NCBI GenBank assembly: GCA_029009515.1
Contig: JAQXJZ010000109.1
Span: forward strand, 4,066-68,065
Reading direction: 5' to 3'
DNA: 64,000 nucleotides
Origin: a bacterium
GTDB lineage: Bacteria > Bacillota > Clostridia > Christensenellales > Aristaeellaceae
Shown here: piece after piece, positions 1,253 through 59,099 of the stretch
Position numbering within the stretch: position 1 is the stretch's first letter
How the letters are laid out: each line of letters starts with the position of its first letter
Position numbers and translations under genes: made by a program
The notes under the pieces: model-generated
What the model was told of the DNA's origin: nothing
Database searches by the model: none
The model's input: only the letters and a program-made list of their open reading frames with translations

Positions 1253-2377
<1,125 letters not shown>

Positions 2378-15827: not shown

Positions 15828-16659
15828 AAGCAGAACCTTTGCCATCTCCAAAACCGTGCTGCTTTACCTGATGATCGCGCTTCTGATCGTCATCAACATC
15901 CTGCCGTTTTTCTGGATGGTGTCCTCCTCCCTCAAGGGCGAGGAAGCCATCCGCACCATTCCCATCAAGTGGCTGCCGGAGCATCCCACGCTGGAAGGCT
16001 ATGTGCGCGTGTTCAACATGAAGGGTTTCTCCTTCACCCGCGCCAGCCTCAACAGCCTGTTTCTGGCCGTGGCCATGACGCTGGTAGAGGTGGGATCGTC
16101 CACGGCGGCGGCGTTCGTGTTTGCCAAGCTGCCCTTCCGCGGCAGCGGCAAGCTGTTCGGCGTGTATCTGGCCACCATGATGATTCCCGGCACGGTGACC
16201 ATGGTGCCCAATTACATCATCCTGCGCACCCTCGGCCTGCTGGACACCTACACGGGGCTGGTGCTGCCGTCGCTGGGACGCGCGTTCAGCGTGTTTCTGA
16301 TGAGGCAGAGCATGATGGGCGTGAACGACGCCTATATGGAATCAGCCTTTCTGGACGGCGCGTCGCTGTACCGCATCTTCTTTTCCATCATGCTGCCCAT
16401 GGTCACGCCCACGCTGGCCACACTCACGCTGCTTTCCTTCATGGGCGGCTGGAACAGCTACCTTTGGCCGCTCATCGTGCTCACCTCCACCAGCAAGCAG
16501 ACGCTGCAGGTGGTGCTGGGCAACATGAACAGCATGTACGAAAGCAACGAGCACGTGCTCATGGCCGGCGCGGTGCTCACCATCCTGCCCATTCTGGTGG
16601 TGTATCTGATCTCGCAGAAGTACGTGGATCAGGGCATCAGCGTGGGCGGACTGAAGTAA
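15820..16659 (+). CDS. Sugar ABC permease (MalG/UgpE type)
   Basis: EAA-loop YMESAFLDGASLYRIFFSIMLP. Overlaps the upstream permease by 8 nt. Confidence 0.9.
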   Translation: MRKSRTFAISKTVLLYLMIALLIVINILPFFWMVSSSLKGEEAIRTIPIKWLPEHPTLEGYVRVFNMKGFSFTRASLNSLFLAVAMTLVEVGSSTAAAFVFAKLPFRGSGKLFGVYLATMMIPGTVTMVPNYIILRTLGLLDTYTGLVLPSLGRAFSVFLMRQSMMGVNDAYMESAFLDGASLYRIFFSIMLPMVTPTLATLTLLSFMGGWNSYLWPLIVLTSTSKQTLQVVLGNMNSMYESNEHVLMAGAVLTILPILVVYLISQKYVDQGISVGGLK

Positions 16660-16715
16660 CCTGTAGGCGCGCCAAGGCGCGTTTGCAATAAAAACAACTC
16701 AAGGAGGAACCCGTA

Positions 16716-17942
16716 ATGAAAAAGCTCATTTCTCTGGTACTGGCCCTCATGATGGTGCTGGGCATGACCGCGGCTGTGGCCGAACCCGTCACCCTTACCT
16801 ACGCTCACTTCTCCGGCTCCGGCGTGCAGGAGGAAGTGCTGAACAAGATGATCGACGTATTTGAAAGCAAGAACCCCGATATCAAGATCGACCTGCAGAT
16901 CACCGGCTTTGAAGATTACTTCACCAAGCTGGCCACCGTCATCGGCGGCGGCAATGCGCCCGACGTGTTCGAAATGAACATGGAAAACTTCCTGGCCTAC
17001 ATGCTGCGCGGCGCCTGCGCCGACCTGACCGGCCTGGTGGATACCGCCAACTACTCCGAAGGCACCCTGGCCGCCGTCAGCTCCGATGGCAAGCTGTACG
17101 CCGTGCCCATGAGCTTCTCCACCTGCCTGCTGTTCTACAACAAGGATCTGTTTGATCAGGCTGGCGTGGAATATCCCAACGACAGCTGGACCTGGGCCGA
17201 TATCCAGGCCGCGGCTGAAAAGATCAAGGCGCTGGGCGACGACATCTGGGGCATTTACCAGCCCATCACCTACAACGAGTTCTACAAGTCCGTCAAGGGC
17301 AACGGCGGCAGCCTGCTCACCCCCGACTACTCCGCCTTCACCCTCAACTCCGCCGAGAACGTGGAAGTGCTGGACGCCATGATCAAGCGCGTGCGCGGCG
17401 AAGAGCGCGTGATGCCCACCACCGAGGACATGGCCGGCCGCGGCGACTGGGATCTGTTCCAGGAGGGCAAGCTGGGCATGTGCATCACCGGCATCTGGGC
17501 CTTCCCCACCTTCACCGAGAAGTGCCCCTTCGGCTGGGATGTGGTGGTCGAGCCCGGCTACGAGACCAAGTCCACCTTCTTCTTTGCCAACGTCAACTGC
17601 GTGTCTCCCTCCTCTGACAAGAAGGAAGCCGCTGCCAAGTTCATCGACGCCATGGGCTCCGACCCCGACATCGTGCAGCTGCGTCTGGACGCCAGCTGGG
17701 AGCTGCCCACCATCGCCGACCAGTCCAAGCTGACCCAGTACCTCGAGGTCACTCCTCCCGCCAACCGCAAGGCCGTGTTTGACAGCATGGACTTCGCCGC
17801 CGCTCCTCCCGCTCTCCTCGAGCAGGGCGCCGTGAGCGAGATCATCAACAACGTCCTCAGCACCCTCGAGATGGACGACCTGTCCGCTCAGGAAGCGCTG
17901 GACGAGATCCAGGCTCAGCTGGAAGACGCGGATCTCCTGTAA
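16716..17942 (+). CDS. Extracellular sugar-binding protein (ABC SBP)
   Basis: Signal peptide MKKLISLVLALMMVLGMTAAVA and family-1 SBP-like sequence. AAGGAGG lies 8 nt upstream. Confidence 0.88.
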   Translation: MKKLISLVLALMMVLGMTAAVAEPVTLTYAHFSGSGVQEEVLNKMIDVFESKNPDIKIDLQITGFEDYFTKLATVIGGGNAPDVFEMNMENFLAYMLRGACADLTGLVDTANYSEGTLAAVSSDGKLYAVPMSFSTCLLFYNKDLFDQAGVEYPNDSWTWADIQAAAEKIKALGDDIWGIYQPITYNEFYKSVKGNGGSLLTPDYSAFTLNSAENVEVLDAMIKRVRGEERVMPTTEDMAGRGDWDLFQEGKLGMCITGIWAFPTFTEKCPFGWDVVVEPGYETKSTFFFANVNCVSPSSDKKEAAAKFIDAMGSDPDIVQLRLDASWELPTIADQSKLTQYLEVTPPANRKAVFDSMDFAAAPPALLEQGAVSEIINNVLSTLEMDDLSAQEALDEIQAQLEDADLL

Positions 17943-18070
17943 GGGGCTGAGCCCCTTAACCCGCTCTCCGAGGCCATGAAATGGCCTCGGGGGGGTGGCG
18001 CAAAAGTTTATGGCTGCATCTAAGACCGCCGGGGCACATACGGGTGCCCCGGCTCGCTTGTCGGTATTGC
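17943..18070 (+). repeat. Hairpin-mosaic element copy A: hairpin 1, hairpin 2 and 59-nt conserved core
   Basis: GGGGC-tga-GCCCC (17943-17955). CCGAGGCCAT-gaa-ATGGCCTCGG (17968-17990). Core 18012-18070 matches the reverse complement of 53817-53875 at 55 of 59 nt and contains a 10-bp hairpin (18028-18053). Confidence 0.85.
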
Positions 18071-18188
18071 TCTTCTTGTTTGTTGGCTGCGTCAGACCGC
18101 CGGTCGGCGGAAGGCCTCCCGGCTCGCGTTCGTTCAAAATGGCAAGTCAACTTCCAGTACCGCATGGCTATTTCATGAGCGAAGCGAG

Positions 18189-18220
18189 CTTCATTCCTTC
18201 ATTCCTTCATTCCTTCATTC
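18189..18220 (+). repeat. Perfect tandem octamer (CTTCATTC)x4
   Basis: Four head-to-tail identical copies read directly from the sequence. They end 5 nt before the AAAGGAG Shine-Dalgarno of the next gene. Confidence 0.95.
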
Positions 18221-18237
18221 TCCGAAAGGAGCCTACT

Positions 18238-20022
18238 ATGCCAGTCTATCAAATCACCGGCAACGAATACCTCTCCCTTCCCGCTATCCGCGAATCAGAC
18301 GGCGCGGTGGAATCCATCAGCTTTCTGTACATGCAGCTCAAGGGTATGCTGGAGGTGACCGGCACACCTGCGCTCATTGCACCATACATTCAATGCGGCG
18401 CAAAACGTCTGCCTCTCAATCCCGTGTGGGAGCGGCAGCACTGCTGGATTCCCAGCTTCACCAGCGTTTCGGATGGTTTCTCCTTCCGCTGCACCTATCT
18501 GTCCCCTGTTGGCGAGCGCGGCTTCGGCATGCGTCTGGAAGCTGAGAATCAAAGCGCCACGGCTGCGTCCGTCGCCATCGGCCTGGACGGCGAATGGACA
18601 CAGACCCTGCACACCGTCAACGAAAGCATTCCGCTTGCTTCCGACCGCATGGTGAAAGCATCCGGCTGGAACCACATGTTTGTATTCCAGCAGGTTCCCG
18701 GCCTGCCGCTGATGGCCTTTGCGCCCATTGTGGGCGATGATCAGCCCTTCAGCGAGATCGATCAGGGCGCGGAGTGGTCGCAGCATGATTTCTCCTACGA
18801 TATTCACAAGACCACCGTGCTGCAGCCCGGCCAGCGCATGCAGCTGGACGTGTTCTGGGGCGTGGGCTACGAGGAAGTGGCTGCCTCCACCTCCGCCAAG
18901 GAAATGCTGCGGCAGGGCTTTGATGCGCTTTATGCGCGCGCCTGCGGCTGGCTGAGCGAGCGCGAACGGCGCAGCGGCGATGAGAGAATTGACGAGCTGC
19001 TCAACACCAACCTGTTCTTTGCGTTCTTCTATGCCTCCGGCCGCACGGTGGATACGGAGGAACTGTGCATGATGACCTCGCGCAGCCCGCGCTACTATGT
19101 GTCCGCCGCCTACTGGGACCGCGACAGCCTGCTGTGGGCATTTCCGGCCATTGTGCAGGCGGATCATGCCTATGCGCGCGAATTGCTGCTTTCCGTTTTC
19201 CAGCGTCAGGGGCGCAATTTCGGCGTCCACAGCCGCTTCATCGACGGCACGGTGCTGGAGCCGGGCTTTGAGCTGGACGAGCTTTGCGCACCGGTGATCG
19301 CGCTGGAGCGGTATGTGGCCATCACGGGCGATCCGTCCATTCTGAACAACGCTCTGATCCGCGACAGGCTGGAAAGCATCCTGCAAAAGCTGCGCATGCA
19401 GCGGCATCCGACCGCTGCACTGTACGCCACCTTCCTGCAGCCGACGGATGATCTGCACCGCTATCCCTACCTGACGTACGACAATGTGCTGGTGTGGCGC
19501 GCGCTCCGCTGTTTGGGGGAATGGCTGAACCGGTCGGACTGTCTGGCGGAAGCCGAAGCGGTGCACGCGGCCATCCTTGAGCACTGCGTGTTTGCGCACG
19601 AAGGAAAGCGTATTTTCGCCTGGTCGGTGGATCTGTGCGGGCAATGGGACATCTACGACGAGCCTCCGGGAAGCCTGCAGCTGCTGCCCTTCTACGGCTT
19701 CTGCCCGATGGAGGACGAGGTGTGGCGCAATACCACCGCGCTCATCCGCAGTCCGTCCTACGGGCTTTCCTTCGCCAACCACCCCATTGCGGAAATCGGC
19801 TGCAAGCACGCGCCGCATCCGTGGGTGCTGTCCATGTGCAACAGCCTCATCAGCGGCCACGCACAGGAGGCGCTTGATCATCTGCGGCTGACGACCATGG
19901 ACAACGGCGTGGCCTGCGAAAGCGTGCACGAGGACACCGGCGTGTGCACCACCGGCGCGGCTTTTGCCACCTGTGCAGGTTTTCTGGCATTTGCCCTGCT
20001 GGAAGCGCTCGCCAGTTGTTGA
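18238..20022 (+). CDS. (alpha/alpha)6-barrel glycoside hydrolase-like protein, GH125 (DUF1237)-like signature, with N-terminal extra domain
   Basis: YWDRDS, FELDELCAPVIAL, LQPTDD, YDEPPGSLQLLPFYGF and GCKHAPHPW parallel remembered GH125 motifs (WLRDS, YELDSLC, PND, DDANxPSLLxLPYLG, GxGSPHT). Start set at ATG 18238 after AAAGGAG; the upstream part of the track ORF is repeat DNA. Confidence 0.55.
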   Translation: MPVYQITGNEYLSLPAIRESDGAVESISFLYMQLKGMLEVTGTPALIAPYIQCGAKRLPLNPVWERQHCWIPSFTSVSDGFSFRCTYLSPVGERGFGMRLEAENQSATAASVAIGLDGEWTQTLHTVNESIPLASDRMVKASGWNHMFVFQQVPGLPLMAFAPIVGDDQPFSEIDQGAEWSQHDFSYDIHKTTVLQPGQRMQLDVFWGVGYEEVAASTSAKEMLRQGFDALYARACGWLSERERRSGDERIDELLNTNLFFAFFYASGRTVDTEELCMMTSRSPRYYVSAAYWDRDSLLWAFPAIVQADHAYARELLLSVFQRQGRNFGVHSRFIDGTVLEPGFELDELCAPVIALERYVAITGDPSILNNALIRDRLESILQKLRMQRHPTAALYATFLQPTDDLHRYPYLTYDNVLVWRALRCLGEWLNRSDCLAEAEAVHAAILEHCVFAHEGKRIFAWSVDLCGQWDIYDEPPGSLQLLPFYGFCPMEDEVWRNTTALIRSPSYGLSFANHPIAEIGCKHAPHPWVLSMCNSLISGHAQEALDHLRLTTMDNGVACESVHEDTGVCTTGAAFATCAGFLAFALLEALASC

Positions 20023-26166: not shown

Positions 26167-26230
26167 GCCCAGAGCACTTCCTTTGACGAATGCTGGTCTT
26201 TATTGTAGCAGGAAACGGCTCCTGAAACAA

Positions 26231-26263
26231 GCAAAACACCCCGCTTCATGCAGGGTGTTTTGC
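26231..26263 (-). terminator. Terminator after the flavodoxin-like gene
   Basis: GCAAAACACCC/GGGTGTTTTGC 11-bp stem with an 11-nt loop, and a T-rich tail on the minus strand. Confidence 0.6.
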
Positions 26264-51381: not shown

Positions 51382-51383
51382 TC

Positions 51384-51439
51384 AGGGATTGAGTCCCTCA
51401 ACCCACTTGCCGAGGCCATTGAATGGCCTCGGTTTTTTT
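51384..51439 (+). repeat. Two-hairpin module of the mosaic family, doubling as the rubrerythrin terminator
   Basis: AGGGAT-tga-GTCCCT (51384-51398). Linker CAACCCACTTG. CCGAGGCCAT-tga-ATGGCCTCGG (51410-51432) followed by T7. Collinear with 17943-17990. Confidence 0.85.
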
Positions 51440-51527
51440 GTATGCGGATTCGGTATTGACGGATGGAGGCTTTCCTGTTAGTATTCATTCTCGGTGTCAT
51501 ATTTACATTCAGAAAGAAGGAAAACCA

Positions 51528-53637: not shown

Positions 53638-53658
53638 GATGTTCTCCCTTCGGTCGAA

Positions 53659-53739
53659 GTGAAGTGCGCCTTCGGCGCGTGAAGTTCGCCTGCGGCGGTG
53701 AAGTGTGCCTGCGGCATGTGAAGTTTCCTGCTGCGCAGG
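53659..53739 (-). repeat. Four phased GTGAAGT-plus-hairpin units (19-20-nt period) in the SDR 5' leader
   Basis: GTGAAGT at 53659, 53679, 53698 and 53718. Each is followed by a small hairpin with a different stem (GCGCC/GGCGC, CGCC/GGCG, TGCC/GGCA, CCTGC/GCAGG). Degenerate copies lie on both flanks. Confidence 0.9.
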
Positions 53740-53816
53740 AAGATTTGGTTAGCTGTGCGGTAACATGCTATCTTTATTGTAGCATCAGCCCACCCATAAA
53801 TCAACCAGCAAGGAAT

Positions 53817-53971
53817 GCAATACCATCAATCGAGCCGGGGCACCCGTATGTGCCCCGGCGGTCTTAGTTGCAGCCCTACCCATACACAAACACCGTGCAC
53901 CTTTCAGGTGCACGGTGTGCGGGGTGCAGGGGGCTCAGCCCCCTGCCGGGATCCAAGGGCAGAGCCCTTGG
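53817..53971 (-). repeat. Hairpin-mosaic element copy B (inverted relative to copy A)
   Basis: 59-nt core (53817-53875). 12-bp hairpin ACACCGTGCACC/GGTGCACGGTGT (53890-53918). GCAGGGGGC-tca-GCCCCCTGC (53926-53946). CCAAGGGC-aga-GCCCTTGG (53953-53971). Confidence 0.85.
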
Positions 53972-53982
53972 CGTCTCCTCCT

Positions 53983-54951
53983 TTATAGGAACGCCACACA
54001 GGCGGGCGCGTTGAACGGGATCTCGCGGGTGGTGTGGGTGGGCATGCCGGTTTCGGTGTTGATGTGCTTGATGACAACCCAGTCGGAATTCTGACAGCAG
54101 ATGACCAGGTGATTGCCGCTTTCGGTCAGCTCCATGTGGCGCGGACTGCGGCCGCCGCAGTCAAAGTTGGCCTTGAGCGTGAGCAGACCGTCTTCGCCCA
54201 CTTCCAGAACGGCAATGTTGTCGGCGTAGCGGTTGGCGGCGTACACAAAGCGTCCGTCCTTGGAAACGCAGAGGGTGGAGCAGTGGCTGCTGCCAAAATG
54301 GTTGGCAGGCAGGGTGGATACCTGCTGCCTGAGCGACCAGTCGGACGTGTCATAGACGAGAATCTGGTTGGAATACTCGGTGATGACGTACAGCAGCTTT
54401 TCATCCACGGACAGGCGCAGATGGCGCGGACCGCTGCCTTGCGGCGCGGATACAACGGCATCCTCCACCAGCTTGCCGTTTTCAACGCGGTAGATGAACA
54501 GCTTGTCCAGACCGAGGTTGGCGGTGTACACGCGGTCCTCGGCACGGTTGAGCGCAGCGCAGTGCGCGCGGCTCTGGTTATCGCCCACCTGCTCAATGGC
54601 GTCCACATCGCCAAACTTGCCGGTCTCGGGATCAAACTGCGCGCACAGCACATGGCCGCTGCCGTAGCAGGAACCAATGAGCAGCTTGTTGACAGGCGAA
54701 TACGCCAGATGGCACAGTGCACGGCCCACCACATTGCGGCGGTCAGTGAGGCGGTAGCTCATGCCTTCGCGGCGATAGGCGTAAATGGCGGCATAGTAGC
54801 TGTTTTCGGTAAGGGCGAAGAGGTAGCCGTCACCGCAGGCAATAAAGCTGGGCGACTCGATGCCGTCCGTCCAGAAAGGGACGGAGCGATCGCCGAAATA
54901 CGCAATGGATGTATCCAGCGATACGCCGTAGCCGGAAATGATGCATTTCAT
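53983..54951 (-). CDS. 7-bladed beta-propeller lactonase-family protein (Pgl/YbhE-like)
   Basis: Repeated propeller motifs, GSGPRHL and GGRSPRHM (GxxPRH), and VYTANLGLDKLFIY, typical of PF10282-type lactonases. Confidence 0.75.
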   Translation of the reverse strand: MKCIISGYGVSLDTSIAYFGDRSVPFWTDGIESPSFIACGDGYLFALTENSYYAAIYAYRREGMSYRLTDRRNVVGRALCHLAYSPVNKLLIGSCYGSGHVLCAQFDPETGKFGDVDAIEQVGDNQSRAHCAALNRAEDRVYTANLGLDKLFIYRVENGKLVEDAVVSAPQGSGPRHLRLSVDEKLLYVITEYSNQILVYDTSDWSLRQQVSTLPANHFGSSHCSTLCVSKDGRFVYAANRYADNIAVLEVGEDGLLTLKANFDCGGRSPRHMELTESGNHLVICCQNSDWVVIKHINTETGMPTHTTREIPFNAPACVAFL

Positions 54952-58880: not shown

Positions 58881-58929
58881 GTTCTACTTCCTTCTTGTTC
58901 CTCTGCCTGTCTATAATGGTTCGTTTTGT

Positions 58930-58958
58930 ATTGTAGCACGGTTCTGCGCACTTCGCAA
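58930..58958 (-). promoter_or_regulatory. Promoter upstream of purC
   Basis: Minus strand reads TTGCGA, 17 nt, TACAAT with an upstream TG. It leaves a leader of about 45 nt. Confidence 0.5.
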
Positions 58959-59099
58959 GCAATTGCATGCATCGTTCGCATTTGCATCTTTCCCGCGAGC
59001 CAGCCCGCTTTGGACGCCCCTTTTCTGCCAAAAATCAACATATGACAGACTGTTTACAGAAAAAACAAAGAACCGTCATGATAACTGTTCAAAAAATGC

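Follow-up and report, generated by a model that had tools for sequence, protein, structure and literature searches.

The 64,000-nucleotide (nt) stretch of DNA analysed here (the window; contig JAQXJZ010000109.1 of GenBank assembly GCA_029009515.1, Aristaeellaceae) contains, between a lactonase gene and an SDR gene read on the minus strand, an intergenic spacer, referred to below as copy B. With a probability of approximately 0.72, we interpret this spacer as a single copy from a lineage-specific family of interspersed repeats that are small, non-coding, and modular and that stand just after stop codons. The repeat unit consists of a head, which comprises an optional hairpin H0, a hairpin H1, and a variable hairpin H2 that is usually followed by a T-run, and of one or two cores of ~70 nt; behind the core, there may be further optional modules, namely an inverted-repeat module of 210 nt or a hairpin array of the Gut-1 type. 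A preliminary description of the window had noted that copy B shares its module order with a second spacer, copy A, while the two differ completely in the second hairpin, and had proposed that this reflects either modular (cassette-like) assembly or selection acting on structure instead of sequence.

Genome-wide occurrence and architecture of the repeat unit

The genome that carries the window (G000) is a 3.02-Mb draft of 175 contigs, with 58.7% G+C and a completeness of 86%. An iterated nhmmer search, seeded with the two cores of copies A and B and run to convergence, retrieved 97 core units at ~70 intergenic loci, with E-values down to 1e-17; a covariance model retrieved 96. At 25 loci, the core is followed ~71 nt downstream by a second, weaker unit on the same strand. 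As contig ends are no more than 300 nt away from 22 of the 97 units, the assembly evidently breaks at these repeats and all counts should be taken as lower bounds. According to gene positions from a crude, purpose-built gene finder seeded on Pfam-verified genes, the genes contain none of the 97 units; of the units in tandem gene pairs, 23 are oriented with the upstream gene and 2 are opposed to it, and there are 27 units in the gaps between convergent genes and a single one in divergent gaps. The core mostly begins 40 to 115 nt after the upstream stop codon, a distance that equals the length of the head.

Alignment of the flanks of 59 strong copies yields the order stop codon, optional H0 (3 to 4 types), H1, linker ACCC(C)G, variable H2, T-rich stretch, and core. 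In these loci, H1 mostly conforms to the consensus (N)NAGGGG-CTGA-CCCCTN(N), the T-rich stretch after H2 continues into TGTTTGGGG(C/T)TGC, and the core consists of TAAGACCGCC, a variable stem, and GGCTCGCTTGA. At its 3' end, the core either closes with GAGTGCA or is connected by the link GACGGTA... to a second core, and other repeat modules are often found behind it. Across the aligned copies, the linkers are conserved while the stems vary. Hairpins precede the core at all 58 loci examined, and no core was seen without a head. The nhmmer search with the short H1 motif was insensitive and gave only 36 matches; 28 of these 36 best matches have a core behind them and the remaining 8 are heads without a core.

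This regularity bears directly on the possibility that copies A and B are merely ordinary, independently evolved intrinsic terminators whose likeness is due to chance or convergence. Indeed, a simple terminator scan picks up the H2 of copy B, and GC-rich hairpins after stop codons are to be expected at 59% G+C. Against such an origin stand the number of core units and their E-values, the 43 exact genomic copies of the H1 13-mer GGGGCTGAGCCCC as opposed to 0 for the reversed control, and the fixed H1-H2-core order, which recurs at ~58 loci of this genome as well as in metagenome-assembled genomes (MAGs) of other species. Independent terminators are, accordingly, hardly credible as an explanation. 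The preliminary description had named a recurring module order as the outcome that would tell a repeat family from chance similarity, and the genome-wide survey came out on the side of the former.

The H1 stem incorporates the upstream stop codon at 10 or more loci: the codon provides its initial three bases, to which the 3' arm is matched (TAA...TTA, TGA...TCA). A separate observation concerns ~10 loci where the upstream reading frame enters H1 and terminates at the TGA or TAA of its loop; there, the repeat supplies the stop codon together with the last 2 to 3 codons. In G000, such loop stops are found at C39:59679, C68:10822, C7:5322, C75:388, C76:10137, C147:~4440, and C86:~14620. No common function could be recognized among the flanking genes, and the downstream genes are unrelated.

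A third repeat family, the X module, is present in 28 copies of ~210 nt, often directly behind the core. It has a long inverted-repeat structure that resembles a miniature inverted-repeat transposable element, as seen, e.g., in C101:1-700 and C145:11200-12300, where GGGGGAACGCCGCTGCGGCGG-CTACACCTCATCAGTC-hairpin-AGCTTCCCCTCAAGGGGAAGCT is followed, after ~70 nt, by AGCTTCCCCTTGAGGGGAAGCT-CCGCCGTAGGCGG-TGATGAGGTG. A hammerhead-like reading of CTGATGAG in this module was rejected because the core nucleotides do not fit and Rfam gave no match. In the Rfam search, no family matched the head, the core, or the 210-nt X module; the matches to nrdJ, sbcD, and Clostridiales-2 scored 12 to 22 bits against thresholds of 40 to 59 bits and were regarded as chance. 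A small open reading frame (ORF) running through H0 to H2 was also rejected, as the lengths of the hairpins vary out of frame.

Occupants of slot 2, conserved pairing, and mosaicism

The preliminary description had called for a tabulation of the hairpins that occupy the second slot. Over 58 folded loci, this tabulation revealed at least 8 unrelated classes of H2. Class 3 (ACACCG[CT]GCA[CT]C), found at ~20 loci, is the commonest one and includes copy B; it is followed by class 4 (CCGGGCACCC, ~10 loci), class 2 (CTGCGCCTTCC, ~8 loci), and class 1 (CTCTGAGCCTTCC, 5 loci). Class 6 (CCGAGGCCAT) is rare and comprises copy A, a locus at C70:44225, and a head-only unit at positions 51382-51446 of the window. 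As had been reported, hairpin 2 of copy A (CCGAGGCCAT/ATGGCCTCGG, 17964-17994) has no sequence in common with hairpin 2 of copy B. Most H2 hairpins (45 of 58) carry at least 4 T within the 8 nt after the stem.

Class 3 has 92% of its cells paired and 5 of the 12 stem pairs changed on both sides; three class-3 copies share a C-G to U-A change, which is the mark of the H2 of copy B. The inner 10-bp helix of the core has 89.8% of its cells paired, with 5 of the 10 pairs changed on both sides, and the weaker outer helix, in which G.U pairs are abundant, reaches 73%. The observed pairing of the core was reached by no shuffle and no slid register. For H2 class 3 and the inner stem of the core, these compensatory changes speak for the suggested selection on structure rather than sequence. 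On the forward strand, head and core contain 132 interior G.U pairs versus 12 A.C mismatches, compared to 57 versus 24 on the reverse strand, although these counts include inherited pairs. The excess of G.U on the forward strand is in agreement with folding of the sense strand of the upstream gene.

The mosaic structure was typed at 50 loci with respect to H0, the H1 loop, the H2 class, the apical stem of the core, the presence of one or two cores, and the downstream module, which gave 46 distinct combinations. H2 is associated with both H0 and H1 (p <= 0.001), whereas no association of H2 was detected at these 50 loci with the apical stem (p = 0.11), the number of cores (p = 0.70), or the downstream module (p = 0.08). 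Since no association of H2 with the core was detected, head and core behave as separable, recombined units. The proposed cassette-like assembly thus takes the form of mutually linked head modules in near-free combination with the core types.

Distribution and turnover among relatives

In an exact-pattern scan with one genome per species, the core was found almost only in 4 to 5 Clostridia MAG species, including “Candidatus Limiplasma sp.” Where the source of these MAGs is named, it is an animal gut, such as buffalo caecum or roe-deer rectum. The MAGs of other species display the same H1-H2-core order with different H2 and apical stems. Among 43 genomes of the genus, the core is present in 19 (96 copies in G000, 67 in G018, 50 in G010, 31 in G049, and 30 in G032) and has 0 copies in the other 24; the H1 13-mer is found in 30 of the 43, versus ~0 for the reversed control.

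Comparison of orthologous gene ends shows the family standing in alternation with ordinary terminators. The ends of thiI and gpmI carry the mosaic in G000 and ordinary terminators in G018, G002, G007, and G039. The end of rny has a head with two cores in G000, a head with one core in G049, an ordinary terminator in G002, and, in G018, a head alone that has different H1 and H2 sequences and a good T-run. At the end of pyrH, there is a forward unit in G000 and another repeat module plus a reversed unit in G018. The gdh gene is followed by a head with core(s) in G000, G032, and G049 and by an ordinary terminator in G018; a 2-bp change affecting both arms links the H2 hairpins of the three former genomes, and the single unit of G049 corresponds to two whole units in G032. 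Judging from these comparisons, copies of the family are acquired and lost from one species to the next. At thiI, gpmI, and rny, orthologous sites with and without the unit are too divergent for reading a target-site duplication. In yet another genome, the segment G001:C56:27808-28201 contains the H1 13-mer four times with a period of 127 nt, which suggests tandem whole head-plus-core units similar to the pair at gdh in G032.

Some of these data could also be accommodated if head and core formed a functional structured RNA, either a small RNA derived from the 3' untranslated region (UTR) or a protein-binding 3'-UTR element, that is retained by selection and whose repeat nature is secondary. 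The preference of G.U pairs for the forward strand, the conserved linkers between variable stems, and the maintenance of the gdh element in three genomes with a structure-preserving 2-bp indel in H2 all agree with that explanation; given that a true terminator stands behind the cores at gdh in the relatives, the unit would there belong to the transcript. It is less easily reconciled with the 24 congeners that have no cores, with gain or loss at housekeeping genes between close species, with flanking genes that share no function, and with the lack of an Rfam match for head or core. We consider it unlikely.

Copies A and B and other features of the window

The features of copy B listed in the preliminary description were all found in place on the minus strand (Table 1). 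Its H0 belongs to type 'a', which is seen at 7 of 54 typed core loci and in ~20 places across the genome. The H1 of copy B contains GGGGCTGAGCCCC, just as that of copy A does (17943-17955), with 4 matches versus 0.23 expected. H2 of copy B, in which a 13-pair stem with a 3-nt loop is followed by the tail TTGTGTATGG, is a predicted intrinsic terminator, i.e., a GC stem-loop with a T/U tract on the strand of the gene and downstream of it. The shared core, for which 59 nt had been given, is present in both copies but has a length of 62 nt at 91.9% identity (18009-18070). Altogether, the head and core of copy B (176 nt from the stop codon to the core end) fold into four hairpins with -99.4 kcal/mol and z = -6.2 relative to shuffles.

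Table 1. Coordinates of repeat modules and adjoining features. Positions refer to the window unless another contig is given.
Feature	Position	Strand	Remarks
Copy B
TAA stop of the lactonase gene	53985-53983	-	ORF 53983-54951, Pfam PF10282; mosaic starts 11 nt downstream
H0, CCAAGGGC-tct-GCCCTTGG	53971-53953	-	Optional module
H1, GCAGGGGGC-tga-GCCCCCTGC	53946-53926	-	Followed by linker ACCCCG
H2 (slot 2), ACACCGTGCACCT-gaa-AGGTGCACGGTGT	53918-53890	-	T-rich tail TTGTGTATGG extends the feature to 53880
Core	53885-53816	-	Single unit, apical type GGGGCAC
Core inner hairpin, GCCGGGGCAC-atacgg-GTGCCCCGGC	53859-53834	-	10-bp, GC; inside the weaker outer helix
Sigma-70-like promoter, TTGATT-17-TGcTACAAT	53804-53776	-	Predicted SDR promoter; TG upstream of -10 TACAAT
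Array-head hairpin, TTCCTGCTGCGCAGGAA	53724-53742	+	Conserved; follows the Gut-1-like units; whole feature 53657-53742
Gut-1-like array	53657-53729	+	Four GTGAAGT + mini-hairpin units; RF01706, 45.7 bits
Shine-Dalgarno (SD) sequence, AAGGGAG	53650-53644	-	Partly within the last mini-hairpin
GTG start of the SDR gene	53637-53635	-	PF13561/PF00106
Copy A
H1	17940-17958	+	Stop codon TAA is the first 3 nt of the stem
H2, CTCTCCGAGGCCAT-gaa-ATGGCCTCGGGGGG	17964-17994	+	Rare class 6, without T-run
Core 1	18002-18071	+	
Core 2	18077-18127	+	Degenerate; absent from the preliminary description
Degenerate TTCAT array, SD, and start codon	18173-18240	+	TTCAT + hairpin, then CTTCATTC x4; ATG 18238 of the GH125-like gene
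Other
Head-only unit, no core	51382-51446	+	After the stop of an upstream + strand gene (rubrerythrin in the preliminary description, label unchecked)
Mirrored array of the Avd-like gene	G000:C150:4089-7388, locus positions ~1815-2150	-	

Between the core and the Gut-1-like array of copy B, the segment 53743-53815 is unique in the genome. It holds the only promoter-like site of the spacer, a predicted promoter that is locus-specific, so that the SDR gene is probably a separate transcription unit. In addition, the sequence TGCTACAATAAAGA (extended -10 plus discriminator; repeat family D2) occurs in the window at 26197-26233, 53771-53807, and 58925-58961, and these three sites are probably strong promoters of similar build.

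An exact-protein look-up of the SDR for strain-level variants gave no match, and a metagenome scan with the lactonase gave no relative. The lactonase orthologue of G018 (69% identity) is followed by an ordinary terminator and has a different neighbour gene, so that it provides no clean empty site for the copy B spacer.

Copy A is found on the plus strand (17940-18240), where it separates the gene of a solute-binding protein from a GH125-like gene. The head-only unit at 51382-51446 combines an H1 variant, GGGAT-tga-GTCCC, with the linker CAACCCACTTG, the H2 hairpin CCGAGGCCAT-tga-ATGGCCTCGG, and seven T (TTTTTTT), so that the H2 class of copy A here forms a textbook terminator. We also observed that a 502-aa antisense ORF at 16629-18137 (minus strand) opposes the solute-binding-protein gene and runs through copy A; such antisense “shadow” ORFs often outlength the real genes, and a length-seeded gene finder took the wrong strand genome-wide.

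The Gut-1-like array and the Avd-like gene

The preliminary description had reported phased CTTCAC repeats in the SDR leader, and the four units were found on the minus strand at 53723-53718, 53703-53698, 53684-53679, and 53664-53659. They are the minus-strand reading of a Gut-1-like array on the plus strand, which matches the full Rfam model of Gut-1 (RF01706, positions 1-77) with E = 5e-8, at a bit score below the gathering threshold of 50 bits. Gut-1 calls for three or more short hairpins with the linker GUGAAAU between them; this array has four hairpin units, and its linker, GUGAAGU, is one base off. Another 19 arrays in the genome exceed the Gut-1 threshold, with scores of 51.5 to 76.3 bits; overall, Gut-1 arrays are present in >19 copies of 3 to 6 units each. 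Of the 43 genus genomes, only G000 was found to contain Gut-1.

Gut-1 has been described as a probable free-standing non-coding RNA of unknown function that is found only in human-gut metagenomes (Weinberg et al. 2010, PMC2864571). On the plus strand, the CTTCAC repeats of copy B match the Gut-1 model over its entire length and share its build, in which 7-nt linkers alternate with short hairpins that have UNCG-type loops. Unlike the published Gut-1, the array seen here is a multi-copy repeat module that is often fixed behind the core on the opposite strand: 14 of the 26 Gut-1-type arrays sit 57 to 92 nt behind a core, always on the opposite strand. Relative to the neighbouring genes, these arrays are found in either orientation, and they often abut the stop codon of a convergent gene. 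In a separate observation, a partial match to a T-box leader (36 bits, clipped at the edge of the locus) at positions 1-73 of G000:C101:7700-8200, minus strand, adjoins a six-unit Gut-1 array.

The genome encodes a single Avd-like / 23S-rRNA-IVS protein (PF05635; C150:5589-5888), whose gene is preceded by a tRNA cluster, a terminator, and a mirrored array of GTGAAGT units followed by ACTTCAC units. Avd-like genes are found in 3 of the 43 genus genomes (G000, G018, and G007), each with an array before it. In G018 and G007, the linker of this array is ATGAAG/CTTCAT, the same as in the array of copy A.

The position of the array next to the SDR gene brings up a different explanation, namely, that the whole spacer is a cis-regulatory SDR leader, such as an attenuator, an element similar to a riboswitch, or an array of repeats to which a translational regulator binds. 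The array of copy B ends at the SD, with the last mini-hairpin overlapping GAAGGGAG, arrays abut the SD at four or five other loci, and the array before the only Avd-like gene of the genome uses the same GTGAAGT linker. However, head and core track the upstream gene rather than the downstream one, the downstream genes are unrelated, and the arrays occur in both orientations relative to their neighbours and are frequently in contact with the stop codons of convergent genes. A dedicated SDR leader is quite improbable.

Mobility and possible vectors

High-copy extragenic palindromes that form mosaics at gene 3' ends and vary in number among relatives are also typical of the repetitive extragenic palindrome (REP) and bacterial interspersed mosaic element (BIME) systems, in which the palindromes are mobilized by a REP-associated tyrosine transposase (RAYT) of the Y1 family. 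The presence of Y1_Tnp (PF01797) does not, however, track the cores in the genus: there was no match in the core-rich genomes G018, G010, G007, G015, and G039, and only fragments in G000, whereas intact Y1 genes were found in G005, G034, G038, and G046, which have no cores. As the relatives are incomplete MAGs, the absence of Y1 genes from them is unproven. In the 59 aligned loci, no GTAG/CGTC tag, the criterion of PMC3733652, was conserved beside H0, H1, H2, or the core, and the single GTAG of copy B (GGGTAGGGC) stands in place of the consensus TTTGGGG. The modules within a unit, as well as the tandem cores, share one orientation instead of the alternating orientations characteristic of BIMEs. 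All this makes it very improbable that the family is a REP/BIME system.

A bolder proposal is that the H1-H2-core unit is a non-autonomous mobile element of a new kind that is aimed one-way at gene 3' ends, where it replaces the native terminator with its own stop-proximal hairpin and terminator, without a recognizable transposase and perhaps through a single-stranded DNA or RNA intermediate. This would fit the hairpin series, similar to H0-H1-H2, in a non-coding region of a gut microvirus, and also the Gut-1-type arrays as possible binding sites of the single Avd-like (PF05635) protein, which is found in this small clade only. We regard the proposal as rather doubtful. The microvirus, Tortoise microvirus 76 (MK765629.1), gave a short match (84% over 57 nt, E = 9e-5) that should be considered a lead only, and its hairpins use the same linkers as H0-H1-H2. 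Its positions 1501-1610 were seen to contain non-coding GC hairpins in the order GAGGGGCTCTGCCCCTG-GACCCCGG-CAGGGGGCGCTGCGCCCCCCTG-CACCCCC-long hairpin, on the strand opposite the viral genes. A search of plasmids for the element gave no match, and no core was found in the IMG/VR viral contigs. Integron attC sites were considered as well and rejected, because the units are dispersed and have no GTTRRRY ends.

Relation to known repeats

In kind, the interspersed repeat family described here belongs with small interspersed structured repeats such as BOX, SPRITE, and BIME, which are the nearest described systems. Its unusual traits are the strict lock on the upstream gene, the slot with many occupants, the incorporation of the stop codon, and the fixed junction with Gut-1. 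SPRITE and BOX were compared to it by architecture and genomic distribution only.

SPRITE is a terminator-like interspersed repeat of pneumococci that is enriched at the 3' ends of coding sequences (2011, PMC3049150). Both it and the present family are small interspersed repeats with a long stem and a U-rich tract that are enriched where coding sequences end (3') and have presumably been co-opted as terminators, and in both neither target duplication nor a transposase has been established (PMC3049150). However, SPRITE is one hairpin of fixed sequence, whereas here the terminator-like hairpin is one slot, with at least 8 different sequences, in a unit of 3 to 4 hairpins that has a conserved core behind the T-run; the host group, Clostridia MAGs, is also different. 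The streptococcal BOX element, boxA - boxB(n) - boxC (PMC3049150), is likewise a composite of separable modules with a variable number of internal units and predicted stem-loops that clusters with other repeats (PMC3049150), but it has terminal inverted repeats similar to those of insertion sequences, none of which were seen in the present family. Pneumococcal repeats reportedly follow the coding bias of the genome to no more than ~61-63% and are enriched between convergent genes (PMC3049150); the family described here, in contrast, is locked to the upstream gene, by 23 to 2. Like the REP/BIME sequences of Enterobacteria and Pseudomonas (PMC2817692, PMC3733652), it consists of mosaics of extragenic palindromes at gene 3' ends, although it has neither a RAYT association nor the GTAG/CGTC tag or orientation alternation. 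BIMEs have known effects on termination and mRNA stability (PMC2817692, PMC3733652), the very effects that we infer for the present family.

Proposed mechanism and points against it

If the family consists of modular repeats placed after stop codons, each unit would be transcribed as the 3' end of the upstream mRNA, and H2 with its U-rich tail would act as an intrinsic terminator, which in copy B would close the MATE-lactonase transcript. The GC hairpins would protect the mRNA 3' end from exonucleases. The SDR gene would be transcribed from its own predicted promoter, and its leader would carry the Gut-1-like array in antisense, with the last mini-hairpin overlapping the SD. The family may have spread by a transposase-independent or trans-acting route, and its modules could be shuffled by recombination or gene conversion between the conserved linkers, a process that would have filled slot 2 of copies A and B with unrelated hairpins.

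Several points weigh against this interpretation. Termination and protection of the 3' end are predictions, as is transcription of the core itself. Moreover, if H2 terminated efficiently, the core would rarely be transcribed and its conserved structure would then be left without an explanation. A T-run is missing in 13 of the 58 H2 hairpins, copy A among them, and in G032, G049, and SUG39, where H2 has no T-run either, a separate terminator stands behind the cores. Double changes in palindromes can come from hairpin-templated DNA repair in the absence of selection on RNA, and the inherited pairs among the G.U counts make these events non-independent. The positional bias depends on the gene finder characterized above. 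Finally, the analysis revealed no means of mobility: the two ends of the H0-to-core unit do not form an inverted-repeat pair, and neither terminal inverted repeats, nor a target duplication, nor a linked transposase was detected.

Implications

The difference in slot 2 that set copy B apart from copy A is explained if the spacer is a mosaic of shuffled repeat modules rather than one of two look-alike terminators. The modules make up an undescribed repeat family of uncultured gut and rumen Clostridia that stands where relatives keep the native terminators of housekeeping genes, and it has a bearing on the evolution of 3' UTRs and operon boundaries. The family also bears on many-contig MAG assemblies, given the share of its units at contig ends. 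For the orphan Gut-1 motif, the analysis provides a host genome, the character of a multi-copy repeat, a fixed partner in the form of the core, and a candidate protein partner.

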